Of a DNA stretch of 64,000 nucleotides, positions 34,140-51,998 are shown in pieces. Position 1 is the first letter of the stretch. Each line of letters opens with the position of its first letter. Origin of the DNA: a bacterium (GTDB lineage Bacteria; Patescibacteriota; Minisyncoccia; Phycocordibacterales; UBA9973); assembly GCA_037127795.1 (NCBI GenBank), contig JBAXXQ010000002.1:11-64010 (forward strand), written 5' to 3'. The notes beneath the pieces were generated by a model, which was not told where the DNA came from, ran no database searches, and saw only the letters and a program-made list of their open reading frames with translations. A program made the translations under genes and the position numbers.

Positions 34140-34173
34140 AAACCTCCCTGTGTTACCAGGGAGGTTTTTGTCT
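34140..34173 (-). terminator. Rho-independent terminator for the 34188-34682 gene
   Basis: Reads aaaacctccctgtgttaccagggaggttttt. Confidence 0.55.
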
Positions 34174-34187
34174 AAGAGGTCAATATC

Positions 34188-34682
34188 TTATTGTTTTTTC
34201 AATGCTTGGAGCTCTGCTTTTTTATCAGCAATAGCTTTCTTTTTTGCATCAAGTGCTGCTTTTTTCTCAGCTTTTATTTTTTCTTGTGCAGCCTTCTTTT
34301 CTGCGGCTTTTGCAATACGAGCATCAGAGGCAACCTTTTTTGCAGCATCAAGTGCAGCTTTCATTGCGTCTTGATCTGTTTTGATTTTTGCTTGATCAGC
34401 AACGATAGCTGTTTTGAGTGTTGCAATTTTTGCTGTGTCTTTTGCTTTTTTTGCATCCATAAGTGCTGCACGATCAGCTTTGAGAGTTGCACGATCATCT
34501 GTTACAAGTTTCTTTGCAGCTACGTATGCAGCATCATCTGTTGCTTTTGGTACTGTTGTAGTTGCTGGAGCAGAAATTACTACAGGAGTTGCTGTTGTAT
34601 TTGCATCTTGTGCGTATGATGTAGTGAGAGCAGCAAATGCAATTGCGGGAATTGCAAGAGACATAATAAGTTGTTTTTTCAT
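34188..34682 (-). CDS. Secreted Ala/Lys-rich low-complexity coiled-coil-like protein
   Basis: Signal peptide MKKQLIMSLAIPAIAFAALTTSYAQ. The remainder is A/K/D/T-rich repeats (KKA.A..K). Confidence 0.5.
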   Translation of the reverse strand: MKKQLIMSLAIPAIAFAALTTSYAQDANTTATPVVISAPATTTVPKATDDAAYVAAKKLVTDDRATLKADRAALMDAKKAKDTAKIATLKTAIVADQAKIKTDQDAMKAALDAAKKVASDARIAKAAEKKAAQEKIKAEKKAALDAKKKAIADKKAELQALKKQ

Positions 34683-34788
34683 ATTGTGTATATTGAGCTA
34701 CATTTACTAGTAAAGACTATCAACTGCAGCATTTGATAAGTCCATGTATATAGTATATCAGATATGGTGGCGAGGCTTTCCACAATAC

Positions 34789-34820
34789 AAAAACCTCCCC
34801 AAAAGGGGAGGTTTTTGTAT
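34789..34820 (-). terminator. Rho-independent terminator downstream of the RRM gene
   Basis: Reads aaaaacctccccaaaaggggaggttttt. Confidence 0.55.
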
Positions 34821-34835
34821 GAATTGAGTACCTAA

Positions 34836-35096
34836 TTAGTTACGCTTTTCACTTGGGCGAGCGATATCTACGAAGATTGTTCGTCCGTCAAATTCTGTGT
34901 TGTTGAGCTTTGAAACAGCTGCTTGTGCTTCTGCTTCTGTAGAAAATTCTACGAAACCGAAACCTTTTGATTTGCCTGTCATTTTATCAAAAATAACATT
35001 TGCACTTGTAACGTTTCCAACTTGAGCAAAATAGTCTTTTAATGCTTGGTTGTCTGTTTTGAAAGGCAAGCTTCCAACGAATACTTTATTTAACAT
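34836..35096 (-). CDS. RRM-type RNA-binding protein
   Basis: RNP2 is KVFVGSL and RNP1 is KGFGFVEF. 86 aa. Confidence 0.8.
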   Translation of the reverse strand: MLNKVFVGSLPFKTDNQALKDYFAQVGNVTSANVIFDKMTGKSKGFGFVEFSTEAEAQAAVSKLNNTEFDGRTIFVDIARPSEKRN

Positions 35097-35171
35097 GAAT
35101 TTTTTTTGTTTTGTTTAAACGCAACGTACGGTATTAAGTAGTACATTACTGGGTTTCAGTGTATCACAGGC

Positions 35172-36023
35172 TTATTGTTTTGGGAAATAGTCCGTCAATA
35201 CGTCGCTGTTGTAAATAAGGGTGCCAAGCTCACCAAATGCGTAGTTTTTGCCACCGAGCGTGATAGTAGATCCACCGATAATAGGGTTGGTATTTGGATT
35301 TGAATTTCCAAAGCCAGTATTAAAAATTGTAATACTGATACCAGGGGTGAGTGCATCACCGAGAGAAGCATTATTCCACTGTGCTTGTACTTCTTTGAGG
35401 AAAAGTGCCGTGTATAAATATGAGTAATAGTGATTGTGTGCATCGGTAAGACGATCATAGAGTACTGTATCGTGTATATCAGTAGGATTGTATGCGATGA
35501 GATTCGCCATGTCAGCGCCAGGGTAGAATGCACTATGGGTATCTTTGAGATGGTTTTCTATAGCAGTCGCAGTGTCTTGTTTGATACCAGAAACACCGAG
35601 TGAGAATTTTGAAAGAGAGCCGAGAATTTTTAATGGTTCAAAATATTTTTTGAAACTTTCTCTATTTGAAGTAAAAAAGCGTAGTTGTTCTGGTGTCACA
35701 GTAGAGATAATAAGTCGAGCGGGAACACCTGTCTCGTGTGAGACGCGAGTAATAATATCTTTGTCTTTGATAAGTCCTGCTTGTACGACATTCCATTCTG
35801 GTGTTTGGTCCCAATCGCAGACAGTACTTGTGTCATTGCAAGGAGTAGTTTTTACGGAAGTTTTTTGAGCACTTTTGAAAAAACTATCACGCTCGACACT
35901 TGACCCTCGGACATTAAATACGCCCCAATGCATACCGATATAGACGCTTGTAGTTGCAAGGCCGATAAGTGCAAATACCACAATGAGTATTTTGCCAAAA
36001 ATAATAAGATAGTTCTTTATCAT
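35172..36023 (-). CDS. Membrane-anchored hypothetical protein
   Basis: Long ORF, trimmed to the internal Met (MIKNYLIIFGKILIVVFALIG) because the ORF-track N-terminal extension would contain a terminator hairpin at 36066-36103. Confidence 0.45.
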   Translation of the reverse strand: MIKNYLIIFGKILIVVFALIGLATTSVYIGMHWGVFNVRGSSVERDSFFKSAQKTSVKTTPCNDTSTVCDWDQTPEWNVVQAGLIKDKDIITRVSHETGVPARLIISTVTPEQLRFFTSNRESFKKYFEPLKILGSLSKFSLGVSGIKQDTATAIENHLKDTHSAFYPGADMANLIAYNPTDIHDTVLYDRLTDAHNHYYSYLYTALFLKEVQAQWNNASLGDALTPGISITIFNTGFGNSNPNTNPIIGGSTITLGGKNYAFGELGTLIYNSDVLTDYFPKQ

Positions 36024-36065
36024 AGTGCTACTATAAACGAAAAAGTGTTTTTTGTCATACAGGTA

Positions 36066-36103
36066 ATTAAAAAAGCCGGTTTGTGTTTTAAAACACAAAC
36101 CGG
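36066..36103 (-). terminator. Rho-independent terminator for the 36126-36575 gene
   Basis: Reads gccggtttgtgtttt-aaaacacaaaccggc. Confidence 0.55.
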
Positions 36104-36125
36104 CCACCTTCCTGGAAGGATTTAA

Positions 36126-36575
36126 TTAAATTGATCTAATGTACTCTACAGGTTTTTGTATTACCCATGAAAAAACCATTATATATAAAACTGAAAATAA
36201 TGCGTCTGGTATTATATTAATAAGACCATGGTAGCTAATATTTCCCAGTAATGGATATATAATCATCTGGGCAATGAATGCTCCAATAGGGAGAGTTACA
36301 AAAAATGCTGCAAATTTCATAAATGCTCTAATTTCTGAATTTTTTTCGTTTTTTGATTTATACCAAATAAACAAACCGGCACTCATTCCCATAATGATTA
36401 TTATTCCTACTAAAGGAATGGTGAAAATGTGTAGTATTTTTTTTGTCTCTGTATTTGTAATATAGAGAGAAATTAAATCACTAGCTGATCCGATTATAAA
36501 TACAGAAATTAAAAATATTGATACTAGTTTTTTGCAAACTGTAGAATACTTAAAGAAGAAGATAATCTTTTTCAT
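36126..36575 (-). CDS. Integral membrane hypothetical protein (4 TM)
   Basis: 149-aa hydrophobic ORF directly downstream of a copy of the conserved promoter. Confidence 0.45.
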   Translation of the reverse strand: MKKIIFFFKYSTVCKKLVSIFLISVFIIGSASDLISLYITNTETKKILHIFTIPLVGIIIIMGMSAGLFIWYKSKNEKNSEIRAFMKFAAFFVTLPIGAFIAQMIIYPLLGNISYHGLINIIPDALFSVLYIMVFSWVIQKPVEYIRSI

Positions 36576-36612
36576 AATTGTTATTTTATTGTGGAGAACT
36601 TGTTATAAGTAT

Positions 36613-36641
36613 ATAATAGCATATTTTCAATTAAAAGTCAA
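36613..36641 (-). promoter_or_regulatory. Sigma70-like promoter (TTGACT-N17-TATTAT; copy of the conserved promoter module)
   Basis: The reverse complement reads gattgacttttaattgaaaatatgctattatatac. Confidence 0.45.
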
Positions 36642-36648
36642 TCATACA

Positions 36649-36677
36649 AAAACCCCTTAATATAAGGGGTTTTTGAG
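36649..36677 (-). terminator. Rho-independent terminator downstream of the DoxX gene
   Basis: Reads aaaaaccccttaatataaggggttttt. Confidence 0.55.
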
Positions 36678-36701
36678 GTATATAGAAGAAATATCGTCTA
36701 A

Positions 36702-37145
36702 TTATGCTTTTGGAGCAACGTCTGCATCGATACATGCAGGGCATGTACTACAGCCACAAATACGTGCTACGAGAGAGTATTTGCCACCTCCAGAAAGGAA
36801 GAGTGAGAGTGCTGAGAAGAAAAGGATAAAAGGTGTCATTACCATGTTGATATTGTTGTGTACTACATACACTGCAACAAGCATAGTAATAGCGAGCAAT
36901 GCAGCTGCGAGGCGTGTCCATGCACCGAGTACAATAGCGATACCACCGATAAGTTCTGTGAATGATACGATGTATGTCCAGAATGCATTGAAGCCCATTT
37001 GTGCAAACATACCTACAGTGATTTGAAGGTGACTTACTTTTTCCCATCCTGCGAGAATAAATACTGCACCAAAACCGATGCGAAGTACAAGGAGCCCTAT
37101 GTCGTTATTTACCCATGTACATTTTTTAACAATTGAATTAAACAT
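36702..37145 (-). CDS. DoxX-family membrane protein
   Basis: Reads DIGLLVLRIGFGAVFILAGWEK, a DoxX signature. 4 TM. Confidence 0.7.
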   Translation of the reverse strand: MFNSIVKKCTWVNNDIGLLVLRIGFGAVFILAGWEKVSHLQITVGMFAQMGFNAFWTYIVSFTELIGGIAIVLGAWTRLAAALLAITMLVAVYVVHNNINMVMTPFILFFSALSLFLSGGGKYSLVARICGCSTCPACIDADVAPKA

Positions 37146-37205
37146 AATTATCTTACTTATTTTTTTAATTTATTAATACGAGCGATTATACCACAGAGAG
37201 GATTT

Positions 37206-37388
37206 TTAAATCCAATGGATCAAATATGCGATAAAAAGTATTGCGCCAAGGAGGCCGAGTAGTGGTTGTATTCGTGAGAGAATACCGATAATAACAACAG
37301 CGATAACTACTTTTACCCACCCAAGTACCAAGAGAGAAGCCCAGATCGTTTGCAAAAGTGTTTGAATGATTGTTTGTATGCTTGTCAT
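37206..37388 (-). CDS. Small hydrophobic protein (60 aa)
   Basis: Two TM-like segments. Weak support. Confidence 0.3.
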   Translation of the reverse strand: MTSIQTIIQTLLQTIWASLLVLGWVKVVIAVVIIGILSRIQPLLGLLGAILFIAYLIHWI

Positions 37389-37442
37389 ATAGCTATAAGT
37401 ATATATTGCACCAAAACAAAAGCAATAGCGTATACTATATAC

Positions 37443-38591
37443 ATGAATACAGATATATATGCGGCATCACTTGCGTTGCACAAAAAAAATAAAGGAAAGC
37501 TCGAGACAGTAAGTAAGGTACGACTTGATTCAAAAGAGATTCTTTCGCTCGCGTATAGTCCGGGGGTCGCAGAAGTATCTCGTGAGATTGCACGCGATCC
37601 AAACCTTGCTCGTGAATACACACTCAAAGGCAACACTATTGCTATTGTCTCAGACGGCTCAGCTATTTTAGGGCTTGGCAATCTCGGAGCGCTCGCTGCT
37701 ATTCCTGTGATGGAGGGCAAAGCCGCAATATTCAAAGAGTTTGCTGGAGTGGATGCATTCCCTATATGTCTCGACACACAAGATACTGAAGAAATTATTT
37801 CTATTGTAAAAAAAATCGCACCAGTGTTTGGTGGAATCAATCTCGAAGATATCGCAGCGCCTCGTTGTTTTGAAATTGAAGAGCGCTTGCGTAAAGAATT
37901 ATCTATTCCTGTAATGCACGATGATCAATGGGGTGCAGCGACAGTGACTCTCGCGGGAGTAATCAATTCGCTCAAGCTTATTGGCAAAACAAAAGAAGAA
38001 GTGAAAGTGGTGCTCAGTGGTATTGGTGCTGCAGGAGTAGCGACAGCACGACTACTTTTGATATATGGTATTACCAATATTGTTTTTTGTGATAGTAAAG
38101 GAATAATTTTTGATGGTCGCACAGACATAACCAAAGAAAAACAAGAACTTCTCAATGGTAGTAGTGCATCTCCCGTAGAAGGAGACCTCGCTATGGCAGT
38201 ACAAGACGCAGATATCTTTATTGGCCTTTCAAAACCAGGGGTTTTGACGCCTGATATGGTCCGTTCTATGGGGCCAAAGCCTGTGATTTTTGCTCTCGCA
38301 AACCCAACTCCGGAGATAATGCCTGACATAGCAAAAGAGTCTGGTGTATTTATTGTCGCTACTGGCCGCAGTGATTTTCCAAATCAAGTGAACAACTCAC
38401 TCGTATTCCCAGGTGCATTCAAAGGCATGCTCGAAGCAAATATTCCACAATTCAAAAATGAAATGTTTAGTATCATTGCGCAAGCACTCGCAGATTTTGT
38501 AGAAAATCCGACACCCGAAAAAATAATTCCTTCGATGTGGGACGCGGGTATAGTAGAGCTTGTTTCTAGTGTAGTAAAAAACTTCTCGTAA
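37443..38591 (+). CDS. NAD(P)-dependent malic enzyme (small bacterial type)
   Basis: Reads SLAYSPGVAEVSREIA, followed by a nucleotide-binding domain VLSGIGAAGVA. The start was moved to MNTDIYAASLAL (ATG at 37443). Confidence 0.85.
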   Translation: MNTDIYAASLALHKKNKGKLETVSKVRLDSKEILSLAYSPGVAEVSREIARDPNLAREYTLKGNTIAIVSDGSAILGLGNLGALAAIPVMEGKAAIFKEFAGVDAFPICLDTQDTEEIISIVKKIAPVFGGINLEDIAAPRCFEIEERLRKELSIPVMHDDQWGAATVTLAGVINSLKLIGKTKEEVKVVLSGIGAAGVATARLLLIYGITNIVFCDSKGIIFDGRTDITKEKQELLNGSSASPVEGDLAMAVQDADIFIGLSKPGVLTPDMVRSMGPKPVIFALANPTPEIMPDIAKESGVFIVATGRSDFPNQVNNSLVFPGAFKGMLEANIPQFKNEMFSIIAQALADFVENPTPEKIIPSMWDAGIVELVSSVVKNFS

Positions 38592-38655
38592 TCCACAAAA
38601 AAAGCTTTCATTAATTTACTTTTTCTAGTAAAATATAAGGGACGTTTGTCGTTTC

Positions 38656-41600
38656 ATGAGAGCAAATATTTTTAAAAAATTTGCGTCGTTCATTTTGTAC
38701 ATTTTTGTACTCTCTTTTGTCGTACCAAGTACAACTCTCGCTATCACAGGAGCCCCAAGTATTATCAGCTACCAAGGAAGACTTACAGATAGCTCTGGTA
38801 ACTTGCTCGGTGGCGCAGGCACACTCTATGCATTCAAGTTTTCTATCTGGGACAATTCAGTAGTGGGGGCTGGTACCAAGCTTTGGCCTGCAGCAAATCC
38901 TGGCGTAGATTCTGTGCAGGTCACTGATGGGGTGTTCAATGTCCGCATCGGTGATACTGCGAACGGCTACCCAGATACACTCAACTACAATTTCCAAGAT
39001 AATGCCAATGTCTATTTGCAAATAGAAGTTTCTTCTGATGGTACGACATTCGAGACGCTTGGTCCTCGTCAGCAAATCACTTCAGCAGGCTATGCGATAA
39101 ATGCACAGACACTGCAGGGCCTCACCCCTGGTACTGGCGCAAACAATCTTTTGCAATTGGGAAGTAATGGCGAGATCAATCTCTCAGGAAATGGTATTTC
39201 TACACTCGGCAATGTAGGTCTCGGTACTGTATCGAGCGGTGTATGGCATGGCGATCCTATTGCAGACGGCTATTTTGTAAAAACAGGGAACTGGGAAGGA
39301 AATTTTGGTGGGTACGATAGTAGTTACTATCTCAATGCGACTCATTTATCAAACTTCCAAATCCCATTTGATACTGCATTCGCGACAAAGACTACAGATA
39401 GTCTCGCAGAAGGAAGTTTGAATAAATATTTTACCGATACTCGTGCGCGCAATGCTATATCTGTAGCAGGTGCACCGTTGAGCTACGATACTAGTACTGG
39501 AGTAGTATCTATCGCACAAGCAGATAGTACACATGCAGGATTTGTATCAGCGGCAGATTACAACACCTTCAACAACAAACAAGATGTATTGATCTCTGGC
39601 ACTAATATAAAAACAATAAACTCAAATTCTCTCCTCGGTGCGGGAGATATTTCTGTTGCGACATTGCTTGGCTATACACCATACAACACAACAAACCCAA
39701 GTAATTTTATTTCAAATATTGGCGGCCTCGTAACTCCTGGTACCAATGTCTCAATCACCGGGAGTGGTACTGCGATAGATCCGTTTGTTATCACTAGTAC
39801 CAATCCAGGTGGGACAGTGACTTCTTTTGCTTTTACAAACAGTAACGGCTTCACAGGGAGTGTTTCAAATAGTGGGACTACGCCGACACTAACGCTTGCT
39901 TTGCAATATGCAAACAGTACACAAGACGGTCAGCTTTCTGCTACTGATTACAATACCTTTAATAATAAACAAGATACACTCGGCTACACACCATACAATG
40001 CGACCAACCCCGCAGGATATATCTCAAATCTTAACGCACTTACTACAACAAATTTGAATGAAGGAAGTAATTTGTATTTCACCAATGCCCGCGCAATAAG
40101 CGCACTCACCGGGCAAAATATTTCATTATTAAATAATAACGCTGGCTATATCACCGGTGTCTCATGGGGTGGTATTACAGGACTTCTTGCAAATCAAACA
40201 GACCTCCAAAATGCACTCAATGCAAAACAAAATGTCATCACACTCGGCACTACTGCACAATATCTCCGTGGAGACTTGTCTCTTGGGACATTTCCAACTG
40301 CAGTATCGAGTTTTACCAATGATGCAAACTATATCACCACCGCAGGTGCACGAAGTGCTATATCTGTAGCTAGTACACCACTCACATACAATAGTAGTAC
40401 GGGGGTAGTCGGTATCAATCAGGCAAATAGTACAACCGATGGTTTTGTATCAAGTACTGATTGGAATACATTCAATAATAAATTTAGTCTCCCAGCCCTT
40501 ACAAGTGGCTCTGTTGTTTTTGCAAATGGTTCAACACTTGCACAGGATAACAATAACTACTATTGGGACAGCACTAATGCGCGTTTGGCAATTGGTGGCT
40601 CTTCGTCAGGTGCAAGTTATCCAAGTGTTGCAATGACAGGTGCAAGTACTCCGAGTCCTTATGTGGCTAGTGCCTCAACTTTTAATACAGGGTTTGAAGC
40701 CTATAGAGCTTTTGATAATAATAGTGGTACAAACTGGAATAATACTGCAAGTACTGGTTGGCTTGCTATTGACCTAGGTAGTACGACAACAATAAATAAA
40801 TACCAAATTCAAGCATTAAATAGTGCTGGTACTGTTTCTGCGACCCCAAAAACATGGACTCTCGAAGGTTCTACTACAGGTGCATGGGCTGGGGAACAAG
40901 TGATTATTGATACTCAGGCAAGCCAAACAGGTTGGACTGTAAGCGAAATACGAACTTTCACTCTTTCATCAGCACAATCATATAGATACTATCGTATAAA
41001 TATATCTGCAACTAATGGGTACCCTACAATAGGTATAACCTCATTTGTTTTACAAAATACTTCACCTATTCACGTTTCTCCGCTTGCAAAACTCCATATC
41101 ACCGCTGGATCAAATACGGAAAAAGGTCTCATTGTACAAGGTGCTGCAAGTCAAACTGCAAACCTTCAAGAATGGCAGGATAGTGCAGGGGGTATATTGT
41201 CATATATGACCCCCGCGGGAAATATAGGGTTTGGATATGGTAGTCATACTATATCTATAGATGCTCCATCATCAAACAGTAATGGAAGTAATTTGACGAT
41301 TATTGCGGGGGCTACTACTGGGACTGGATACACAGGAGGAAATTTGTACTTACTTCCTGGGGCAACTGCGGGAGGAGGTTCTGCAGGTAGTGTTTGGATT
41401 GGGGGAAACTCTTCAGGTAATTACCAATCATATAGTAATAATATTCAAGGTTTTACAAGAGTTAGGAATGGGGGGCCTAATACAAATAATTTACTTGCTC
41501 TTGCTGGTGGATCCGGTTTGGATAACTGGGTATTCTCATACGATCAAACAAATAAATATGCAATTACGACATATGCGAGTACGTATCAAGCGCAATTTAA

Positions 41601-44600
41601 AACTGCTACAGCGTATACATTTGATAATAATGTAGGTGTTGGTACTATTTCTCCCTCAGCACGATTGCACTCTCTTGCTACTACCGAGCAGCTTCGCCTT
41701 GGATATGACACAGCAAATTACATGTCTACTACTATTGGTAGCACTGGCAATGCAACTCTCGCACTCACTGGCACCGGCACTCCAGCATTTACATTCTCAA
41801 ACCCTATAAATATCTCTGGTGCACTCACTGCGACAAGTATTACAAACTCATCACTCACTCAAGGCTCAGTACTCTTTGCAGGTGTGGGTGGGTTAGAGTC
41901 ACAAGACAATAACAACTACTATTGGGATAGTACCAATGCACGGTTGGCAATTGGAGGGTATTTAGGCGGGACTGTATATCCGACAACTGCAATGACTGCA
42001 AATAATCTACCATCTCCTTATGTAGCAAGTGCCTCATCTGTATCGGGAGGTTACCCAGAATATCAGGCTTTTGATAAAAACGCTTCAACATTTTGGGCAT
42101 CTCTTGTTAATAATCCAACCGGTTGGATTGCGATTGATTTGGGTAGTACTACAACAATAAATAGATATCAGGTACAAGCTACTTCTGGTGGAGGAAATGT
42201 AAACCCTAAAAACTGGACTCTCGAAGGTTCTACAACTGGCGCATGGGCAGGTGAGCAAGTAGTACTTGATACTCAAACAAACCAAACCGGCTTAATGACA
42301 GGGGGTGCGATTCTCACATACACTCTTTCGTCAAATCAATCATACAGATATTACAGATTAAACGTGAGTGCAAACAATGGCGCTACTAACTACCTTGAGG
42401 TTGCTAGTTTCAATGTACAAAATACAAATACAACTCATGTAGCACCACTTGCAAAACTCCATATCACCTCAGGTTCACAGACTGAAAAAGGTTTGATTGT
42501 TCAAGGATACGCAAGTCAAACTGCAAACCTTCAAGAATGGCAGGATAGTACTGGTGCAGTGAAGGCATATATTGATCCGTTCGGTCAGATTACTTCATCA
42601 AGTAATATTTATGCAACAGGTACTGTTACTGGTGGTAATGGAAGAATTATAATGTCTGGTGGTTTAACTAATGGAGCAAACGGTTCTATCTACACACAAT
42701 CAGGACAATCAAGAAGTTTGGAATTGGTAGTCGATCAAACTGCTGGTCGCGGAATGCTTATTCAGACAGGGACAGGGTATGTAGGAGTAGGTACTACATC
42801 TCCTACGTCTATGCTCGATGTAGCAACAAATGCGCTCGGTACAACACAGACAACAACAAGTGGTCTTGCGCTAGAAAACAACACTGCAGGTGCGCTCAAC
42901 GCAATGCAAATATCTCCAGCTGTACGTATGAGCGGGCAGGGATGGTATGTAAACGGAAGTGTATCACAACAAGTTGATGCTCGTATGTATGTGTTGCCAG
43001 TTCAAGGAACATCAGCAAATGCAACAACGTCAATAGTATTTGATGCACAAGATGGAAGTCGTGGAGGATTTAATAAAATTGCTGATTTTTCTAATCAATA
43101 CGGAGGTACCAGTGGAAATTTAAATTTATATGATAGCGGTGTTATTAAGGCTTCTTTGTTTGCTGGAGGTAATGCAAGATTAAATTTAAATGGAGGTATA
43201 GTAACTAGTCGAGGTAGTAATATTATAATGAGTACATCAGTTCTTAACGATCCTAATACTTATAATATGGGGATGGTGACATCTATATCTAACACTCTTC
43301 CACAATTTTCTGCAAACTATAATGCGACAAACTATTTTACAACAACGGTAGGTAGTACAGGCAACGCAACACTCGCACTTACAGGTACTGGTACACCATC
43401 ATTTACATTTTCAAACCCCGTAAATATTTCTGGTGCACTCACTGCGACAAATATTACCAACTCATCCCTCACCCAAGGCTCAGTAATCTTTGCTGGTGCG
43501 GGTGGAGTAGAGAGTCAGGATAACAATAACTACTATTGGGATAGTGTAAACAATCGTCTTTCTATTGGAGGGTATTTAGGTGGGACTGTATATCCAACTT
43601 CTTCAATGACTACAAACAGCTTGCCATCTCCTTATGTGGCTACGTCTAGCGGCTCTCAAATTGGTGGGTATGAATCATTTAGAGCTTTTGATGGAGTCCT
43701 TTCATCTGCGTGGGCTGTTGGGACTACTTCTGGTTGGCTTGCTCTAGATACAGGTAATGCTCTTGGGACAACAATAAATAAATATCAAGTACAAGCATCA
43801 AATCCGATGGGCATAGGTATTGGTTCTATGCCAAAAAACTGGACTATTGAAGGTTCTACAACTGGTGCATGGGCTGGTGAGCAAGTAACCATTGATACAC
43901 AAACAAATCAAACTGCTTGGTCTTTAGGAGAAATTAGAACATATCCCCTTTCAACACCTCAAACATATAGATATTATCGTATAAACATTAGTGCAAACAA
44001 TGGTAGTAGTTCATATACTGGTATTGGTGCATTTAATCTTCAGAATACTGCAACAACACACGTAGCACCTCTTGCAAAACTTCATATCACTTCAGGTTCA
44101 CAGACAGAAAAAGGATTGATCGTACAAGGATATAATTCTCAAACTGCAAACCTCCAGGAGTGGCAGGATAGTAGTGGAAGTATAAAAGCATATGTTGATA
44201 GTGGTGGTACTTTTAATACCGGTGCTACTATTGTTGCGACAGGTTCTATTACTGGGGGAAATGGAAGAGTTGGTATAGGTGCGGGTCTTACAAGTAGTAC
44301 GAACGGCGCGATATATTCTACTTCTGGAAAAAGTTTGGAATTGGTTACAGATTCAACAGCTGGTCGTGGAATGCTTATTCAAACAGGAACAGGTAATGTC
44401 GGTATTGGCACAACATCACCTTCAGCAAAAACACACATTCTCGGTACTACTGAACAACTCCGCCTCGGATACGATGCTTCAAACTACATGTCTACTACTA
44501 TTGGTAGCACTGGCAATGCAACTCTCGCACTCACTGGCACCGGCACTCCAGCATTTACATTCTCAAACCCTATAAATATCTCTGGTGCACTCACTGCGAC

Positions 44601-47600
44601 AAGTATTACAAACTCATCACTCACTCAAGGCTCAGTACTCTTTGCAGGTGTGGGTGGGTTAGAGTCACAAGACAATAACAACTACTATTGGGATAGTTCA
44701 ACACAACGTCTTGCAATTGGAGGTTCTTCATCGGGGTCAAGTTATCCAAGCGTTGTTATGACCGGGAATAGTAGTCCGTCTCCGTATGTAGCTAGTGCAT
44801 CAGGTACTAATTATGGTGCACCGTGGAACGCTTTTGATAATAATTCTTCAACAACATGGAAATCTAATGTACTTGGATCAGGTTGGCTTGCTATTGATTT
44901 AGGAAGTGTTACAACTATAAATAAATATCAAATTCAGGTAGATCCTGTCTACACTAGTAATCAACCAAAAACATGGACTCTCGAAGGTTCTACTACGGGT
45001 GCATGGGGAGGTGAGCAAGTAACTCTCGACACACAGGCGAGTCAAACAGGGTGGGCTGTGGGTGAAATACGTACATTTACTCTTTCGTCATCTCAATCAT
45101 ATAGATATTTTAGAATAAATGTCACAGCAGTTTCTGGTGTTGATAATGTGGTTATTGCTTCATTTGTTTTACAAAATACTTCTCCGACCCACGTTTCTCC
45201 TCTTGCAAAACTCCATATCACTGCTGGATCAAATATTGAAAAAGGTCTCATCGTACAGGGTGTAGCAAGTCAAACCGCAAACCTCCAAGAGTGGCAAAGT
45301 AGTACCGGAAGTATTTTGTCTACTATAAATAGCAGTGGATATTTGGGTATTGGAACAAGTACTCCTCGATATCAAATTGAATTAAATAGCGGAACTGCTA
45401 ATTCAAGTCTTGTATTGTCGGATTCCGCAGCTTCGTCTACAAGTCGTGGACTTTCTTGGACACGATCAAGTGATGGAACAGTATTTCAATATATTTCTGC
45501 AACAACTGATAGTGGAAATATGCTTTTAGCAGCATATCACAATGTATTGTTTGTCTCAGGATCTGGTAGTGGTGTTGGTATGGGACTTCCGACAACAAAC
45601 AATTTCCTTTCAGGTAAATTGCATATTCGTGGAGAAAGCTCTGATACATCTTCAAACACTTATACAGGTACCAATGCATTGTATGTAGAAAACTCGCTTG
45701 CGCAACAGCTCTTCTCTGTGGCAAACACAGGAAGCGTCGGTATTGGTACAAACACTCCTACATCATTACTCCAAGTAACTCAACGTACAACAGGTGCGGG
45801 TACTGTTACCAACACTGCGGGCGGTACAACTGTTACTGGTACTGGTACACAATTTACAAACACCTTTAAAGTCGGAGACACAATCACTATCGGTGGGCAG
45901 ACTGTTGCTATTTCTGCTATTGCATCAGATACAGGTATGACAACAGCTGCGATCACAAATGCAAATACCAATGCGGCATATACACTCGTCGGTGGAAATA
46001 GATTTGCGGTGAGTGGTAATGGAAATACTATCGTTGGTCCTGCAACATATAGTCCGTCTAATGCACAATTCTTTGTTTCAAACTCAACATATAATAATGG
46101 ATCAGGGGTTATTATTGATACGAGTGGGACATACCCAAATGCAAGTACAAACCCTCTTATTGGATTTGTGGGTGCTGGATTAACACTACCTTCATCGTGG
46201 ATTCAGGCTGTATTGCCGTATGGTGCAATGCAGATGAGAGCGTATAGTGACTTGCAAATTACAACTACAAATGCAACAGGGGGAGGTTTGAGTGTCAACA
46301 GTGGGGCTACATTTAGTGCTTCGTTGGGTAGAATAAATGCAGCGGGTACGCGTACCTCAGTTTCTGGGCAAGCATCTAGTTTCTATAGTAATGTTGCACT
46401 TACCGCAGCAGCAACAAATGATATTTTGGCAAGTTATTATATAAATGATACTTATGTTCCTGGTGCATTTACTGGTGTTACTCAATACGGTATTTATCAA
46501 AACAATACTGCGCAAAACTATTTCCAAGGGAATGTGGGAGTAGGTACTGCGACACCTTCTGCAAAACTACATTCTCTTTCTACTGGTGAACAGCTTCGTC
46601 TTGGATATGACGCGTCAAACTATACCGCATTTACAACATCTTCAACTGGAAACTTAACTATTAATCCAAGTGGTGCTGCGGTCCAAATTGCTGGTAATTC
46701 TGCCCTTATTATAAATCCTGGAAATGGAACACTGGGTGTCGGTGTAAGTGCTCCAACAGCAAAAGTTGATATTGCAGATATTGCACTTGCCGGTAGTGGA
46801 TCACTTGCTGGATCGGTGTTAAATATCGCACAAACTTGGAATACGTCAGGTTCACCTACTGCTATAAAATTGGCGGTTACAAATACTGCAAGTAACGCTA
46901 CCTCAAGTTATCTCCTTGATTTGCAGGCAAACAATAGCGGAGGAGGAATGTATTCTAAGTTTAGTGTGAGATATGATGGGTATGTCGTTGCGGGTTCTTC
47001 AATATCAGCAGGTGGTGCTTTTGTAGGGTTAACAAACGGACAAGATAATCAGCCTATTATTAAAAATAATAATACAGCGTTTGGTTTATGGACAACAAAT
47101 TCACTATCATCAAGTTATGTAGGCTATGGTACTAATATCACACTAGGTATGAATATGAATAGTACTGGAAACTTTGGATTCAGTACTACGGCAACAGCAA
47201 CAGAGAAAGTGACAATTGCAGATACAACTCTTGCTGGTAGTGGGTCACTTACTGGCTCAGTACTTAATCTTACACAAACATGGAATACAACAGGAGCACC
47301 AACTGCTATTAAATTGAATGTGACAAACACTGCAAGTACAGGGACGCCAAAACTTCTTGATTTGCAAGTGGGAGGAGTGTCGAAGTTCTATGTGCCAGCG
47401 AGTGGTAGTGTTCAGGCACCAAACGGCATTGTTGCAAGTAGTGGATTCACTATGAATGGTGGCTTAGGAATTGGTTCTGCATTTGCTGGTAATGGATCAT
47501 GGGGTAATTCTTCTGGCTCAAATGTGATTAATGGTGTTGCAATTTATCCTACAATAAACCTTACTGGTACATATTCAGGAAGTGCATTTGGATTTTCTTT

Positions 47601-48783
47601 TACGCCTACTATTACATCATCAACAGGAAGCTTGTATGCGTTTTATTCTTCAAATGGTATGAACTCGTTTACCGATACTATTTCTGCTAGTTCAGGTTCT
47701 CGTGCTGGTTCACTCCTTTCTCTTAATCAAAAATGGAATACAACAGGAAGTCCGACAGCTATACTCCTTAATGTGACAAATGGGTCTGGTGGTGCTGGAG
47801 TAGCTGGAACTAATGCTAATTTAATGGATTTGCAAATGGGAGGAACGAGCATGTTTGCTGTAGGGGCAAATGGAAATGTGGGTATCAATGGTATTCCGAC
47901 AAATCGTCTCTCTGTTATGGGTGCAAGTGGTGATACTACTGTAGTTAATATCGGTACGACCAGTGGAAACAACTGTAGCTTCTCGACAACGACTGGCTCA
48001 TGGAGTTGTGCGTCTGATATTCGTTTGAAGCATGATATCTCAGATATTTCTGCAGCAGATGCGCTTGCAAAGCTTGGTATGCTCAATCCAGTATTCTTCC
48101 GATATAATTGGCAAGCAGATAGTGAGTCTGCTATTGCTGGATTCATCGCGCAAGATTTTGAAAAAGTATTTCCAGAGCTCGTAAATACAGATCCAAATAC
48201 AGGATACAAGTCGCTCTCATATGCACCACTTATGCCGTACGTAGTAAAAGGACTCAATGATCAAGAAAAGAAAATTTCTGATATGGATATTCGTGTTTCA
48301 AAATTGGAAACAATACTCGCACTCGCAACACCTAGTACAAATTCTTTTGATGGAGTACTTGCAAGTATGAATGCAAATGTGATCGACGGGGTGGCGCATT
48401 TCAAGAGTTTGTTTGTCGATACTATACATGTAGACAAGGGTATCGAAATGAAAGATCAAACAACTGGCGCATTGTACTGTGTAGTAATCAATAATGGTGA
48501 TTGGGTAAAAAATCCTGGTCCTTGTGATACACCAGTAGTGGTGCCGCTTGCGCCAACACCTGCAGTATCTGTACCGACTACTACGACAACCCCAAATACA
48601 ATTCCGGATACACCCGTAGTAAGTCCTACTCCAAGCACAACAGATACTAGTACTCCATCAGTAACAACTACAGTTACGCCAGATCCAGCACCTAGTTCTG
48701 CTCCAGTAGTAGCCCCAACCAATACAACTGATTCTGCTCCAGCACCTACAGTAGCAGCACCTGTAACAACAACCACCCCATAA
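38656..48783 (+). CDS. Giant secreted surface and tail-fibre-like protein (3375 aa) with a signal peptide and LGYTPYN(T/A)TNP modules. It has four ~130-aa discoidin (F5/8 type C)-like modules, each followed by a conserved PLAKLHITSGS.TEKGLIVQG.ASQTANLQEWQDS block, and (V/I)G(V/I)GT.(S/T)P. fibre repeats. The C-terminus carries a peptidase S74 intramolecular chaperone domain and a Thr/Pro-rich tail.
   Basis: Signal MRANIFKKFASFILYIFVLSFVVPSTTLA. Discoidin-like blocks lie near 40680-41070, 42040-42430, 43660-44060 and 44810-45190 (AFD.N.ST.W...GWLAIDLGS.TTINKYQIQ...PK.WTLEGSTTGAWAGEQV). The chaperone domain sits at about 48000-48330 (SDIRLKHDISDI...NPVFFRYNW...GFIAQDFEKVFPELV). The PT-rich tail is at 48520-48780. 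Confidence 0.85.
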   Translation: MRANIFKKFASFILYIFVLSFVVPSTTLAITGAPSIISYQGRLTDSSGNLLGGAGTLYAFKFSIWDNSVVGAGTKLWPAANPGVDSVQVTDGVFNVRIGDTANGYPDTLNYNFQDNANVYLQIEVSSDGTTFETLGPRQQITSAGYAINAQTLQGLTPGTGANNLLQLGSNGEINLSGNGISTLGNVGLGTVSSGVWHGDPIADGYFVKTGNWEGNFGGYDSSYYLNATHLSNFQIPFDTAFATKTTDSLAEGSLNKYFTDTRARNAISVAGAPLSYDTSTGVVSIAQADSTHAGFVSAADYNTFNNKQDVLISGTNIKTINSNSLLGAGDISVATLLGYTPYNTTNPSNFISNIGGLVTPGTNVSITGSGTAIDPFVITSTNPGGTVTSFAFTNSNGFTGSVSNSGTTPTLTLALQYANSTQDGQLSATDYNTFNNKQDTLGYTPYNATNPAGYISNLNALTTTNLNEGSNLYFTNARAISALTGQNISLLNNNAGYITGVSWGGITGLLANQTDLQNALNAKQNVITLGTTAQYLRGDLSLGTFPTAVSSFTNDANYITTAGARSAISVASTPLTYNSSTGVVGINQANSTTDGFVSSTDWNTFNNKFSLPALTSGSVVFANGSTLAQDNNNYYWDSTNARLAIGGSSSGASYPSVAMTGASTPSPYVASASTFNTGFEAYRAFDNNSGTNWNNTASTGWLAIDLGSTTTINKYQIQALNSAGTVSATPKTWTLEGSTTGAWAGEQVIIDTQASQTGWTVSEIRTFTLSSAQSYRYYRINISATNGYPTIGITSFVLQNTSPIHVSPLAKLHITAGSNTEKGLIVQGAASQTANLQEWQDSAGGILSYMTPAGNIGFGYGSHTISIDAPSSNSNGSNLTIIAGATTGTGYTGGNLYLLPGATAGGGSAGSVWIGGNSSGNYQSYSNNIQGFTRVRNGGPNTNNLLALAGGSGLDNWVFSYDQTNKYAITTYASTYQAQFKTATAYTFDNNVGVGTISPSARLHSLATTEQLRLGYDTANYMSTTIGSTGNATLALTGTGTPAFTFSNPINISGALTATSITNSSLTQGSVLFAGVGGLESQDNNNYYWDSTNARLAIGGYLGGTVYPTTAMTANNLPSPYVASASSVSGGYPEYQAFDKNASTFWASLVNNPTGWIAIDLGSTTTINRYQVQATSGGGNVNPKNWTLEGSTTGAWAGEQVVLDTQTNQTGLMTGGAILTYTLSSNQSYRYYRLNVSANNGATNYLEVASFNVQNTNTTHVAPLAKLHITSGSQTEKGLIVQGYASQTANLQEWQDSTGAVKAYIDPFGQITSSSNIYATGTVTGGNGRIIMSGGLTNGANGSIYTQSGQSRSLELVVDQTAGRGMLIQTGTGYVGVGTTSPTSMLDVATNALGTTQTTTSGLALENNTAGALNAMQISPAVRMSGQGWYVNGSVSQQVDARMYVLPVQGTSANATTSIVFDAQDGSRGGFNKIADFSNQYGGTSGNLNLYDSGVIKASLFAGGNARLNLNGGIVTSRGSNIIMSTSVLNDPNTYNMGMVTSISNTLPQFSANYNATNYFTTTVGSTGNATLALTGTGTPSFTFSNPVNISGALTATNITNSSLTQGSVIFAGAGGVESQDNNNYYWDSVNNRLSIGGYLGGTVYPTSSMTTNSLPSPYVATSSGSQIGGYESFRAFDGVLSSAWAVGTTSGWLALDTGNALGTTINKYQVQASNPMGIGIGSMPKNWTIEGSTTGAWAGEQVTIDTQTNQTAWSLGEIRTYPLSTPQTYRYYRINISANNGSSSYTGIGAFNLQNTATTHVAPLAKLHITSGSQTEKGLIVQGYNSQTANLQEWQDSSGSIKAYVDSGGTFNTGATIVATGSITGGNGRVGIGAGLTSSTNGAIYSTSGKSLELVTDSTAGRGMLIQTGTGNVGIGTTSPSAKTHILGTTEQLRLGYDASNYMSTTIGSTGNATLALTGTGTPAFTFSNPINISGALTATSITNSSLTQGSVLFAGVGGLESQDNNNYYWDSSTQRLAIGGSSSGSSYPSVVMTGNSSPSPYVASASGTNYGAPWNAFDNNSSTTWKSNVLGSGWLAIDLGSVTTINKYQIQVDPVYTSNQPKTWTLEGSTTGAWGGEQVTLDTQASQTGWAVGEIRTFTLSSSQSYRYFRINVTAVSGVDNVVIASFVLQNTSPTHVSPLAKLHITAGSNIEKGLIVQGVASQTANLQEWQSSTGSILSTINSSGYLGIGTSTPRYQIELNSGTANSSLVLSDSAASSTSRGLSWTRSSDGTVFQYISATTDSGNMLLAAYHNVLFVSGSGSGVGMGLPTTNNFLSGKLHIRGESSDTSSNTYTGTNALYVENSLAQQLFSVANTGSVGIGTNTPTSLLQVTQRTTGAGTVTNTAGGTTVTGTGTQFTNTFKVGDTITIGGQTVAISAIASDTGMTTAAITNANTNAAYTLVGGNRFAVSGNGNTIVGPATYSPSNAQFFVSNSTYNNGSGVIIDTSGTYPNASTNPLIGFVGAGLTLPSSWIQAVLPYGAMQMRAYSDLQITTTNATGGGLSVNSGATFSASLGRINAAGTRTSVSGQASSFYSNVALTAAATNDILASYYINDTYVPGAFTGVTQYGIYQNNTAQNYFQGNVGVGTATPSAKLHSLSTGEQLRLGYDASNYTAFTTSSTGNLTINPSGAAVQIAGNSALIINPGNGTLGVGVSAPTAKVDIADIALAGSGSLAGSVLNIAQTWNTSGSPTAIKLAVTNTASNATSSYLLDLQANNSGGGMYSKFSVRYDGYVVAGSSISAGGAFVGLTNGQDNQPIIKNNNTAFGLWTTNSLSSSYVGYGTNITLGMNMNSTGNFGFSTTATATEKVTIADTTLAGSGSLTGSVLNLTQTWNTTGAPTAIKLNVTNTASTGTPKLLDLQVGGVSKFYVPASGSVQAPNGIVASSGFTMNGGLGIGSAFAGNGSWGNSSGSNVINGVAIYPTINLTGTYSGSAFGFSFTPTITSSTGSLYAFYSSNGMNSFTDTISASSGSRAGSLLSLNQKWNTTGSPTAILLNVTNGSGGAGVAGTNANLMDLQMGGTSMFAVGANGNVGINGIPTNRLSVMGASGDTTVVNIGTTSGNNCSFSTTTGSWSCASDIRLKHDISDISAADALAKLGMLNPVFFRYNWQADSESAIAGFIAQDFEKVFPELVNTDPNTGYKSLSYAPLMPYVVKGLNDQEKKISDMDIRVSKLETILALATPSTNSFDGVLASMNANVIDGVAHFKSLFVDTIHVDKGIEMKDQTTGALYCVVINNGDWVKNPGPCDTPVVVPLAPTPAVSVPTTTTTPNTIPDTPVVSPTPSTTDTSTPSVTTTVTPDPAPSSAPVVAPTNTTDSAPAPTVAAPVTTTTP
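41720..41931 (+). repeat. Copy 1 of a perfect 212-bp intragenic direct repeat (identical to 44486-44697)
   Basis: acatgtctactactattggtagcactggc...caataacaactactattgggatagt is identical at both positions by direct reading. A diverged third copy lies at about 43330-43545. Confidence 0.85.
44486..44697 (+). repeat. Copy 2 of the perfect 212-bp intragenic direct repeat
   Basis: See copy 1. The two copies are 2766 bp apart within the same ORF and in the same frame. Confidence 0.85.
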
Positions 48784-48784
48784 T

Positions 48785-50104
48785 ATGAAAAACGTATATA
48801 AAAAAATTCTATATATAGTAGTCTTGGGAATAGGAATTTTTTCTTATTCGCAAGTGTCTGCAACAAGTATCGTGGGATTAGATTTTTCTATTGTGAATCC
48901 GATTCTTTCTAGTGGTTTTGCGCAAATAAAATCTACCAATTTTGGGCTTGGGCAATCGTTTGGGCAAAGTGTAATAGGGAAGTCTATCTCTGCTCGATTC
49001 CAGGTGTGGAGTGGGTTCCAATACTATGCGACAGCAAAATCGTTTGTTGCGACAGCACAACCAGGAGATAGTAAAATAACGTATTCATGGACTGCGCCGC
49101 AGACATATCTGGGTGCGACTGTTGGTTCATATGAACTCGGTATAGGTACTACGCCAGGGACATATGTATTTCAAAATGTAGAAAGTGTTACTACGTTTGT
49201 AAAACCAGGACTTACCAATGGTGTGCAGTATTATGCAATCATAAAAGCAGTTTCTCCTGGTGGGGCTGTACTTTCTTTTTCTAATGTACTAATTACAAAA
49301 CCAGTAGCGGCTACTATAAATCCTGGTACTGGCGGCGGCGGTGGAGGCGGTGGAGGAGGTGGTCCTTCGAATACTGGCTCTGTTGGTAATGCAGCTATTA
49401 TTATAAAAGGTATTGCATACCCTGGTGCGCAAGTGACTATTCTCAAAGATGGTGCAGTACAAGCGGTGACTACTGCAGATATGGGGGCTTTGTTTTCTAT
49501 TACTATAAATAATCTCGTCGCAGCGCAGTATACATTTGGCGTATATGCGACAGATTCAAATGGAAAAAAATCTAGTGCGTATAGCTTCCCGATGACACTT
49601 ACTGACTCAGTGACTGCCGAGATCGACAATGTATTCCTCGCGCCAACTATTGGGGTAGATAGTAGTACGGTGAAAAAGGGTGATCCGATTGGGATTTTTG
49701 GTACTGCTGCGCCGAATGCACAGGTCAATATTTATGTGCACTCGGCGCAGCAATTCACTGAGCAGGTGAGTGCGTCAAAAGTCGGTGCATGGTTCAAGCA
49801 ATTTGATACATCATTCCTCGAGCTTGGAGATCACGTGACATTTTCTCGACAAATAAAAGGCACGCAAGTGACTGATGTCAGTCAGAGTGTCGGCTTCACG
49901 GTGGGTGATAAAACTATAAAAGAAAATACTACGTGTGGGCGCAGTGATATGAACTGCGACAAGAAGGTGAATATTACAGACTTGAGTATGCTCTTGTATT
50001 ACTGGCACAAAACACCTCCTGCAAATTCAAAAGCAGATATAAATAAAGATAAGATTGTTGACTCAAAAGATTTTTCAATATTACTATATGACTGGACAGG
50101 ATAA
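48785..50104 (+). CDS. Secreted protein with FN3/Ig-like beta domains, a poly-Gly linker and a C-terminal dockerin-like domain
   Basis: Signal anchor MKNVYKKILYIVVLGIGIFSYSQVSA. The linker is GTGGGGGGGGGGGPS. The C-terminus carries two Ca-loop/helix repeats, DMNCDKKVNITDLSMLLYYW and DINKDKIVDSKDFSILLYDW. Confidence 0.6.
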   Translation: MKNVYKKILYIVVLGIGIFSYSQVSATSIVGLDFSIVNPILSSGFAQIKSTNFGLGQSFGQSVIGKSISARFQVWSGFQYYATAKSFVATAQPGDSKITYSWTAPQTYLGATVGSYELGIGTTPGTYVFQNVESVTTFVKPGLTNGVQYYAIIKAVSPGGAVLSFSNVLITKPVAATINPGTGGGGGGGGGGGPSNTGSVGNAAIIIKGIAYPGAQVTILKDGAVQAVTTADMGALFSITINNLVAAQYTFGVYATDSNGKKSSAYSFPMTLTDSVTAEIDNVFLAPTIGVDSSTVKKGDPIGIFGTAAPNAQVNIYVHSAQQFTEQVSASKVGAWFKQFDTSFLELGDHVTFSRQIKGTQVTDVSQSVGFTVGDKTIKENTTCGRSDMNCDKKVNITDLSMLLYYWHKTPPANSKADINKDKIVDSKDFSILLYDWTG

Positions 50105-51227
50105 AAAACAAAAATTATATACCATATTTTTTTATACACTTATAGTATTTTTGTGTAGTGTATTTCGTGTACATGCTGCTGTGCTTTCTGTCGGATCAGC
50201 GCAGCAAAATATATATGTTGGCGATAGTGTCTCTATTGATTACTATATAGATACCCAAGACGCGCCAATAAATGTCGTCGATGCGACATTGCACTATGAT
50301 GCAAAAACATTACGCGTAGACAATATCTCTACTGGAAATTCTGCGGCAAGTATCTGGGCAGAAAGTCCTAGTGTGGTACGTGATGGCTTTATACATTTTG
50401 TTGCAGGGTTCCCTGATGGTATAACAGGCAACCATATATCACTCCTTCGTGTTACCTATGTAGCGCAAAGTGCTGGAAGTTCATTTCTTTCAAATACTAT
50501 ACAAAATTCGCACGTATATATAAATAATGGCGCAGGGACAGAGCAAGAGCTCTCTATGCAGCCTGTGAGTTTTATGATTCTCCCAGAAGGCGGCAAGGTC
50601 GCCACTATATCTTCTAATACAAATCCTATGCAGACTAATTGGTACAAAGATCACGATGTCAAAATTCATTTCACTATGCAAAAAGATAGTGTGTATAGTT
50701 ATAGTTTCAGTACCAATCAAGAGCTTATCCCAAGCGATACCCCAATGCAGACAAATGGTGATGTACTGTATGAGCATATTCCTGATGGAGTGTACTATTT
50801 CAAGCTTGCTATGAAGAGTGGCTCAGGATGGAGCGAAGCGGGGGTATATAGAGTACAAATAGATAGTACTAGTCCCACTATTTTGTCTGCATATATAAGT
50901 AGTGACATGTCTATATATAGTGGTAATGCATTCGTATCTTTTTCTGGGGTAGATAAAACAAGTGGTATCGCGCAATATGCAGTACGCAGTGGGTACTTTG
51001 GGTTCTATCATACAGCGACAAGTCCATACAAAATAAATCGTCCATTGTTTGGTAATTTTATTACTGTGCGTGCGCGTGATGTTGCAGGTAATACTAGTAC
51101 AGAGACAGTGTACTATCCTGCATACATTCCAAATTGGCTTGCAATAATACTGTTGTGTATACTTGTGTGTGGTTTGTTGTTGCGATACACCACACTCCGT
51201 CGTATACTTACTAAGATACAAAAATAA
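50088..51227 (+). CDS. Membrane-anchored surface protein with an N-terminal cohesin-like beta-sandwich domain and a C-terminal TM anchor
   Basis: Signal ...FLCSVFRVHA. The domain begins AVLSVGSAQQNIYVGDSVSIDYYIDTQ..INVVDATLHYDAKTLRV..ISTG, matching the cohesin start pattern. The C-terminal TM is NWLAIILLCILVCGLLL followed by RR. The start was chosen at the ATG at 50088. Confidence 0.45.
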   Translation: MTGQDKKQKLYTIFFYTLIVFLCSVFRVHAAVLSVGSAQQNIYVGDSVSIDYYIDTQDAPINVVDATLHYDAKTLRVDNISTGNSAASIWAESPSVVRDGFIHFVAGFPDGITGNHISLLRVTYVAQSAGSSFLSNTIQNSHVYINNGAGTEQELSMQPVSFMILPEGGKVATISSNTNPMQTNWYKDHDVKIHFTMQKDSVYSYSFSTNQELIPSDTPMQTNGDVLYEHIPDGVYYFKLAMKSGSGWSEAGVYRVQIDSTSPTILSAYISSDMSIYSGNAFVSFSGVDKTSGIAQYAVRSGYFGFYHTATSPYKINRPLFGNFITVRARDVAGNTSTETVYYPAYIPNWLAIILLCILVCGLLLRYTTLRRILTKIQK

Positions 51228-51230
51228 TTT

Positions 51231-51953
51231 ATGAAAAAATTTTTTACACTCATATCAATTTTCTTTTTTACTTCAGTACTTGTAGTACATGCTGCTGTTA
51301 TATCTATCGCGCCAAGTAGTAAGTCTGTTGTTGAGGGAACAACCTTTAGTGTATCTGTAGAAGTAAATACAAAAGGCCAAGCGGTAAATGCTGCAGAGAC
51401 CACGGTAAGCTTCCCATCTGATTTACTCGAAGTAGTATCTGTTGCTGGTGCAAAAACTTTTTCATTACAAACACCAGGGTCTCCTTCTCGTACAGAAAAC
51501 TCAGTTTCATTTTCTGCAGGGATACCATCTCCAGGATACAATGGTCCTCGTGGTGGAGTAGGGCGTATTACCTTTAAAGCAAAAACACCAGGTAGTGCTC
51601 GTATAACAGTTACTTCTGGAAAAGTATTGCTCAACGACGGCAATGCGACAGATGTATTTGATGGTACAACAAATGCACTTATTACTATCACTGCTGCACC
51701 AAAGAAAGAAGTACCTGTTGAGGTAGTACCAGCTCCAGAGACTCCAGCTACAGTAACACCAACAGAAACACTTCCTCCAATCACTCCAACTGTTGCGCCT
51801 GTAGTACAGACTGCACCAACTCAGACCATATCGATCAAAGTATCTGATCTCTTCACCCTTATATACGTACTTATCGGAATAATCGTTCTTCTTGCAATAT
51901 CAGTACTTATTCTTGTACTCTTGTTACTCAAAAAGAATAAGAAGATTAAATAA
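51231..51953 (+). CDS. Membrane-anchored cohesin-like domain protein with a Pro/Thr linker and a C-terminal TM anchor
   Basis: Signal ...FTSVLVVHA. The domain begins AVISIAPSSKSVVEGTTFSVSVEVNTKGQAVNAAETTVSFPSDLLEVVSVAG, paralogous to the N-domain of the preceding gene. A PT-rich linker is followed by the TM LIGIIVLLAISVLILVLLLL and KKNKK. Confidence 0.45.
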   Translation: MKKFFTLISIFFFTSVLVVHAAVISIAPSSKSVVEGTTFSVSVEVNTKGQAVNAAETTVSFPSDLLEVVSVAGAKTFSLQTPGSPSRTENSVSFSAGIPSPGYNGPRGGVGRITFKAKTPGSARITVTSGKVLLNDGNATDVFDGTTNALITITAAPKKEVPVEVVPAPETPATVTPTETLPPITPTVAPVVQTAPTQTISIKVSDLFTLIYVLIGIIVLLAISVLILVLLLLKKNKKIK

Positions 51954-51959
51954 TTAAAA

Positions 51960-51998
51960 ACCGCCCCCGTCAGCTGACGGGGGCGGTTTTTTTATAAG
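51960..51998. terminator. Bidirectional Rho-independent terminator
   Basis: Reads aaaaccgcccccgtcagctgacgggggcggttttttt. Confidence 0.65.

Follow-up and report, generated by a model that had tools for sequence, protein, structure and literature searches.

Two identical neck segments in a giant discoidin-bearing fibre gene probably record a recent, short gene conversion

In a 64-kb window of DNA from an uncultured bacterium with a small genome (64,000 nucleotides (nt) of contig JBAXXQ010000002.1, assembly GCA_037127795.1; "the window" hereafter), a giant gene encodes a fibre-like protein of 3375 amino acids (aa) with four discoidin modules, and two of the neck segments that precede these modules share a block that is identical to the last nucleotide. 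We conclude that the two copies of this block, A and B, are probably the footprint of a recent, short and non-reciprocal ectopic exchange within the gene, which would have taken place between the paralogous neck segments preceding discoidin modules 2 and 4. We favor this reading because synonymous divergence (dS) is 0 inside the block and above 1 in its flanks, because the pairing of modules within the block is incongruent with their pairing outside it, and because a sister lineage lacks the identity. On this reading, the block adds a case to a known process, in a gene that is itself uncharacterised, and reveals no new mechanism. The gene and the copies of the block lie as follows:

38656..48783, plus strand: giant gene (3375 aa), with an N-terminal signal/anchor peptide, repeated stalk units, four discoidin modules, a Peptidase_S74 domain and a Pro/Thr-rich tail
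41719..41931, plus strand: block copy A, 71 codons (YMSTTIGSTGNATLALTGTGTPAFTFSNPINISGALTATSITNSSLTQGSVLFAGVGGLESQDNNNYYWDS), a stalk/neck segment directly upstream of discoidin module 2, exactly identical to B
44485..44697, plus strand: block copy B, directly upstream of discoidin module 4, identical to A; its right flank is orthologous to that of module O3 of the sister lineage (0.86)
43333..43545, plus strand: diverged third copy C, upstream of discoidin module 3, with 81.2% nt and 87% aa identity to A/B
40541..40571, plus strand: a short piece of the 3' end of the block (motif QDNNNYYWDS) that persists ahead of discoidin module 1, in a unit with no other homology to the block

A preliminary description of this DNA had reported a perfect in-frame direct repeat of 212 bp, and the repeat proved to be one base longer: the 213 bp at 41719-41931 recur exactly at 44485-44697, with a spacer of 2553 bp and a start-to-start offset of 2766 (3 x 922) that keeps both copies in the same frame. 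It is the sole exact repeat of at least 40 bp across the entire window, the second-longest one inside the giant gene measuring 39 bp, and no further copies or donors of the block were found elsewhere in the window, the second S74 protein at 11-3169 included. Copies A and B agree at 213 of 213 nucleotides and in all 71 codons (dS = 0), whereas paralogous codons that specify the same amino acid elsewhere in the modules are only 39-65% identical in the codon alignment. Moreover, in a Sawyer-type permutation over 439 variable sites, none of 100000 shuffles reached the observed concordant run of 40, the longest run obtained being 16. Given this codon-level agreement and the outcome of the permutation, chance is excluded as the source of the A/B identity.

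The third copy, previously placed at about 43330-43545 and said to carry many mismatches, is indeed diverged, though its register had to be refined: aligned in register (43333-43545), it differs from A/B at 40 of 213 positions (81.2% identity), 29 of them third codon positions, with a dS of 0.87. By base, T accounts for 16 of the mismatches, C for 12, A for 8 and G for 4, without a bias that singles out one base, and C thus differs from A/B in the manner of ordinary synonymous divergence.

The sequences that border the two identical copies tell of a much older separation. We aligned by codon the four units of the gene (U1-U4, or units 1-4), each consisting of a neck segment and its discoidin module, and the following left flanks were compared:

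41628..41718, plus strand: left flank of A (NVGVGTISPSARLHSLATTEQLRLGYDTANY), homologous to 44394-44484 and 46531-46622 at only ~68-73% nt identity
44394..44484, plus strand: left flank of B, at 68-70% identity to its counterpart beside A; here the putative converted tract has its sharp left edge

When units 2 and 4 were compared in the codon alignment, nt identity was 60% in the left flank (dS 1.72) and 63% in the right flank (dS 1.08). The edges of the block are abrupt, identity falling to 68% in the 93 bp to the left and to 56% in the 59 bp to the right. In a sliding comparison, the nearest pairs outside the block were U1 with U4 and U2 with U3, whereas within the block U2 equals U4 and U3 is 75-91% identical to both. 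The identity of 70-80% that had been attributed to the surrounding modules is thus too high: modules are 68.6-75% identical to one another by BLAST local alignment and 60-71% in the codon-aligned flanks, with the 56% of the adjacent right-hand segment lower still. Likewise, the modules do not form uniform units of ~1.2 kb, as had been proposed, since the discoidin modules are spaced at 1359, 1614 and 1152 bp.

A sister lineage was reached via members of the 90% clusters of neighbouring genes, and is represented by four scaffolds (L156-L159) in the European Nucleotide Archive (ENA), whose four samples belong to one project and which are mutually 98.8-99.9% identical; the window's own lineage was found in one run only (SRR12676973), and a full-text search for this accession retrieved no paper. 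Between window and sister, the flanking genes and both ends of the giant gene are 86-90% identical, with a dS of 0.44-0.55 and a ratio of nonsynonymous to synonymous divergence (dN/dS) of 0.03-0.09; for the N- and C-terminal parts of the giant gene the ratio is 0.03-0.07, i.e., these parts are under purifying selection. The sister orthologue encodes 3035 aa and three discoidin modules, compared with 3375 aa and four modules in the window. Its modules O1, O2 and O3 correspond to unit 1 (76%), unit 2 (84%) and unit 4 (76% overall), respectively, and no orthologue of unit 3 was found in the sister gene. The right flanks of the block support the same assignment, with identities of 0.85 between U2 and O2 and 0.86 between U4 and O3.

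The sister gene does not share the A/B identity. Its sole full copy of the block precedes O3 and is 85.4% identical to the window block (31 differences in 212 positions, dS 0.73), O2 is preceded only by the block's second half (80% identity across 95 bp, 19 of 95 positions differing), and the longest exact repeat within the gene is 29 bp. At ~4046 of L156, before O2, the block from its position 119 onwards is fused directly to another type of stalk (...LMDLQVGGASMFSVATNGNLATTG on one side of the junction and ITNSSLTQGSV... on the other), which makes the midpoint of the window block a recombination junction in that lineage. More broadly, the middle of the gene (39446-47908 of the window against 1682-9130 of L156) is rearranged, with different stalk units between the modules and 70-84% identity where the two can be aligned. 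A stalk unit that lies near 46555-46862 in the window is found between modules 1 and 2 in the sister.

Since the sister carries orthologues of both U2 and U4, the positions of A and B had separated and diverged by the time the two lineages parted. Their identity in the window therefore places the homogenisation after the split, and from the 0 differences in 213 sites we infer that it is much more recent than the split itself. The earlier proposal that the block marks recent gene conversion is well supported by the dS of 0 next to values above 1, by the changed pairing of modules and by the lack of identity in the sister lineage.

Mechanistically, we envisage that one copy served as the template and overwrote the other across at least 213 bp, and that at either end the tract would have stopped once the paralogues had diverged too far for pairing. 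The pathway may have been RecA-mediated conversion or template switching during gap repair. The 213-bp repeat that resulted could in turn act as a substrate for the in-frame gain or loss of a 922-aa segment, making a recombination hotspot or phase variation a plausible consequence. Such an event would not delete or duplicate one whole discoidin module, as had been suggested: an exchange between A and B removes or adds 922 aa that hold two modules, the computed products being 2453 aa with two modules or 4297 aa with six.

Exact direct repeats of this kind are found in other genes as well. Among 153 related loci (1.88 Mb), 21 contain exact direct repeats of at least 80 bp and eight contain repeats of at least 200 bp; most of these repeats are in frame, and at several of them the flanks fall to unrelated levels at the same offset. 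Comparable blocks lie inside two open reading frames (ORFs), one of 4211 aa in a Patescibacteria metagenome-assembled genome (MAG; locus L037) and one of 4760 aa in a Saccharibacteria MAG (L047), and a Pedobacter isolate (L066) has one that is shared by tandem paralogues. With similar blocks in 21 of the 153 loci, patchy homogenisation of modules is routine in genes of this kind.

Some observations weigh against gene conversion as the origin of the block. Copies A and B lie in the stretch 40876-45953, whose content, including the number of copies and their perfect identity, rests on a single assembly, and bubble-merging or polishing could have turned two near-identical copies into identical ones. 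In addition, the direction of copying is not indicated by the sister gene, as the block is 0.85 identical to the copy before O3 and 0.80 (over 95 bp) to that before O2; and recA does not lie within the 64-kb window.

The first of these points leads to the alternative that the identity is an artefact of assembly or polishing, in which similar copies were merged into one consensus used twice, or in which the loop has another copy number in reality. The preliminary description had warned that the region is prone to misassembly, and rightly so. Logan contigs built with k=31 from run SRR12676973 are 100% identical to the window over 29076-40875 and 45954-51985, and the assembly of this same sample therefore breaks in the very region in question. 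The first contig (L155) stops at 40875, on the shared 30-mer of a short repeat:

40846..40877, plus strand: 32-bp exact repeat, with its second copy at 44965-44996; the independent Logan contig (k=31) ends on it

The second contig (L154) begins at 45954, where no repeat within the window accounts for the break; the cause may be a strain variant, reduced coverage or a repeat located elsewhere in the genome. Runs of N interrupt the giant gene in three of the four sister scaffolds (L157 1465-1564, L158 418-427 and L159 7910-7919), and gene calling splits it in two in L157 and L159. The source of the window, moreover, is a MAG contig of 74,257 bp. Nevertheless, we consider an artefact unlikely. 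The length of the repeat, 213, does not match any usual k-mer size, the copies, as direct repeats in line, can be traversed in one order only, and the flanks are distinct and in frame on both sides, with an ORF that is intact over 3375 aa. Merging also presupposes that the copies were nearly identical to begin with, which, given flanks with a dS above 1, would still imply recent conversion. Lastly, comparable blocks are present in the genome of an isolate and in MAGs that were deposited as whole chromosomes. In practice, these observations are a warning that the number of modules and the exact sequence reported for such genes depend on the assembler.

According to a second alternative, the block is part of a program of variation, i.e., an anchor for recombination by which carbohydrate-binding cassettes are swapped, deleted or amplified to bring about an antigenic or host-range switch. 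In its favor, an exchange between A and B stays in frame and leaves intact products of either length, rearrangement between the sisters is far stronger in the middle of the gene (four versus three modules, 70-84% identity) than at its ends (90%), and perfect blocks recur in related giant genes. On the other hand, no recombinase, invertase or reverse transcriptase lies near the gene, and the sister lineage has no such repeat, implying that the block is not a conserved device. The number of modules is uniform across the four sister samples, and the breakpoints of the difference between four and three modules do not coincide with those of an exchange between A and B. We therefore regard programmed variation as quite improbable here. 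The broader proposition that perfect in-frame blocks in giant genes are maintained as anchors for cassette exchange in ultra-small episymbionts, operating without a dedicated recombinase, is just as improbable; if true, such anchors would give host-range or antigenic variation of a fibre that attaches to the host.

Two further explanations have very little to recommend them. A recent segmental duplication of a module, of which the block would be the undiverged remainder, would fit an in-frame direct repeat within a modular gene, and the preliminary description had indeed spoken of a recent intragenic duplication. However, the flanks are anciently diverged: a dS of 1.1-1.7 directly adjoins a dS of 0, the flanks of A and of B are orthologous to different modules of the sister, and a duplication would have left the whole unit identical, making this origin hardly credible. 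Constraint at the nucleotide level, whether from an embedded RNA, from a regulatory element or from the template and variable repeats of a diversity-generating retroelement, would account for the identity of A and B taken by itself, yet it is just as hard to credit given that synonymous sites vary freely in copy C and in the sister copy, that folding z-scores are near zero, and that the mismatches between A/B and C are not centred on adenine. Two specific candidates of this sort were rejected, namely a diversity-generating retroelement (no reverse transcriptase among the window ORFs scanned, and mismatches that are not adenine-specific) and an embedded structured RNA (folding z-scores of +0.12 and +0.31 for the two strands, and no Rfam match in the gene).

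Gene conversion, the explanation we prefer, has well-known counterparts. Ectopic gene conversion and concerted evolution are exemplified by tufA/tufB in Salmonella and by the repeats of the streptococcal alpha C and Rib proteins. The window locus resembles such cases in its short perfect tract between old, diverged flanks, in relationships that disagree inside and outside the tract, and in paralogues that are more alike within the genome than they are to their orthologues. It differs from them in that the tract covers only 213 bp of modules of 1.2-1.6 kb, which remain ~60-70% identical, suggesting that homogenisation here is sporadic rather than pervasive.

The comparison may be extended to other surface proteins. 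In the Periscope Proteins (SasG, Aap, Rib and Sgo_0707), high DNA identity between repeats was proposed to allow intragenic recombination that changes protein length (PMC8201768). The giant protein is likewise a large secreted surface protein with repeated modules. However, Periscope Proteins consist of long tandem arrays of highly identical whole domains whose repeat number is documented as varying between strains, whereas the modules in the window are 60-75% identical, variably spaced, and share one short, dispersed identical block. Non-reciprocal copying within a surface-protein locus is also the basis of cassette antigenic variation, as in pilE/pilS and vlsE (Vink et al. 2012, cited in PMC8201768). 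Unlike these systems, the window locus has no silent donor cassettes and no specialised initiating element, donor and recipient both lying inside the expressed gene, and there is no evidence of high-frequency switching at this locus. As to the repeat as a substrate, direct repeats of ~100-200 bp within a few kb of each other give rise to deletions and expansions in E. coli, through RecA-dependent recombination or RecA-independent template switching (PMC7145654). The 213-bp repeat, with its copies 2.8 kb apart, is of the same scale, although the E. coli events were measured in engineered plasmids. Read as gene conversion, the block would offer a well-dated and clean case of a short tract in a Patescibacteria-like genome.

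The protein that carries the block has a hydrophobic N terminus in translation, in keeping with a signal/anchor peptide. In Pfam it matches the discoidin family (F5/8 type C, PF00754) with 117 bits over four stretches, and this part also matches the CBM32-type discoidin domains of a Paenibacillus glucanase/chitosanase (PDB 4zy9 and 2rv9, E ~1e-4). A sequence search of the PDB gave matches confined to the discoidin part and none for the block. The domains are placed as follows:

40630..41055, plus strand: discoidin module 1 (approximate, aa 659-800), from Pfam and PHROGs stretches and the alignment
42025..42396, plus strand: discoidin module 2 (aa 1124-1247), the best Pfam stretch, with sequence matches to PDB 4zy9 and 2rv9
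43711..44091, plus strand: discoidin module 3 (approximate, aa 1686-1812), from Pfam and PHROGs; without an orthologue in the sister lineage
44806..45132, plus strand: discoidin module 4 (approximate, aa 2051-2159), from Pfam and PHROGs
48013..48183, plus strand: Peptidase_S74 (chaperone of endosialidase), aa 3120-3176, PF13884, 49 bits against a cut-off of 22

The Peptidase_S74 domain opens with SDIRLK, in which Ser and Lys, five residues apart, are presumably the catalytic dyad of autocleavage, as in endosialidases, and the domain is followed by the Pro/Thr-rich tail. PHROGs tail and tail-fibre families match the protein. Together with its left flank, the 71-aa block belongs to a stalk unit found in many Patescibacteria MAG proteins annotated as "tail fiber domain-containing", each of which carries it several times. 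The giant gene thus resembles S74 tail fibres and tailspikes in its SDIRLK-bearing Peptidase_S74 domain, in its PHROGs matches and in stalk units (NVGIGTTSPSAKLH...EQLRLGYD) common to many of them; unlike phage tail fibres, it sits in a chromosomal housekeeping context, bears a signal peptide and has four CBM32-like modules.

No exact-protein record was found for the giant protein, and a protein search together with pattern scans of genome and metagenome collections yielded only relatives of at most 44% identity. A degenerate pattern for the block peptide had no match in metagenome or viral collections. An AlphaFold2 monomer model of one unit (aa 985-1325, built from a four-row alignment) had a predicted local distance difference test score (pLDDT) of 43, with the block below 50. 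In the C-terminal stalk, at 46754-47780, lie three more diverged repeats of ~444-453 bp (AGSGSL.GSVLN..QTWNT.G.PTAIKL.VTNTAS units) that are 71-77% identical, and no recent homogenisation was seen among them. For studies of surface-fibre variation, giant fibre genes with conserved ends and a middle that differs in arrangement from one sister lineage to the other provide a useful background.

The genes of the window include those for ribosomal proteins L6 and S5, SecY, Adk, Map, IF3, TruB, tmRNA with SmpB, FtsH, RecG and malic enzyme; the setting of the giant gene is chromosomal housekeeping, not prophage. Directly downstream of it (48785-51227, plus strand) are a dockerin/Big_6/fn3 protein and then a protein with a weak cohesin match, a pair that the sister lineage retains as well and that may work with the fibre in assembly at the surface.

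Elsewhere in the window, a second protein with a C-terminal Peptidase_S74 domain (11-3169, plus strand; at least 1052 aa, its ORF beginning 10 bases from the window edge) has no near-identical DNA in common with the giant gene. At 11698-14847 (plus strand), a Schlafen-group-3-like helicase fused to Peptidase_S24 is followed by a helix-turn-helix (HTH) and SocA/Panacea antitoxin-domain protein, which may constitute a defence or toxin-antitoxin island beside the ribosomal operon. A 585-aa ORF at 20233-21990 (minus strand) carries a Por_Secre_tail domain (type IX secretion sorting), which is unexpected if the host is a Patescibacteria-like bacterium without an outer membrane. Finally, the stretch 25445-26465 on the minus strand holds the tmRNA (117 bits) and, immediately after it on the same strand, smpB.

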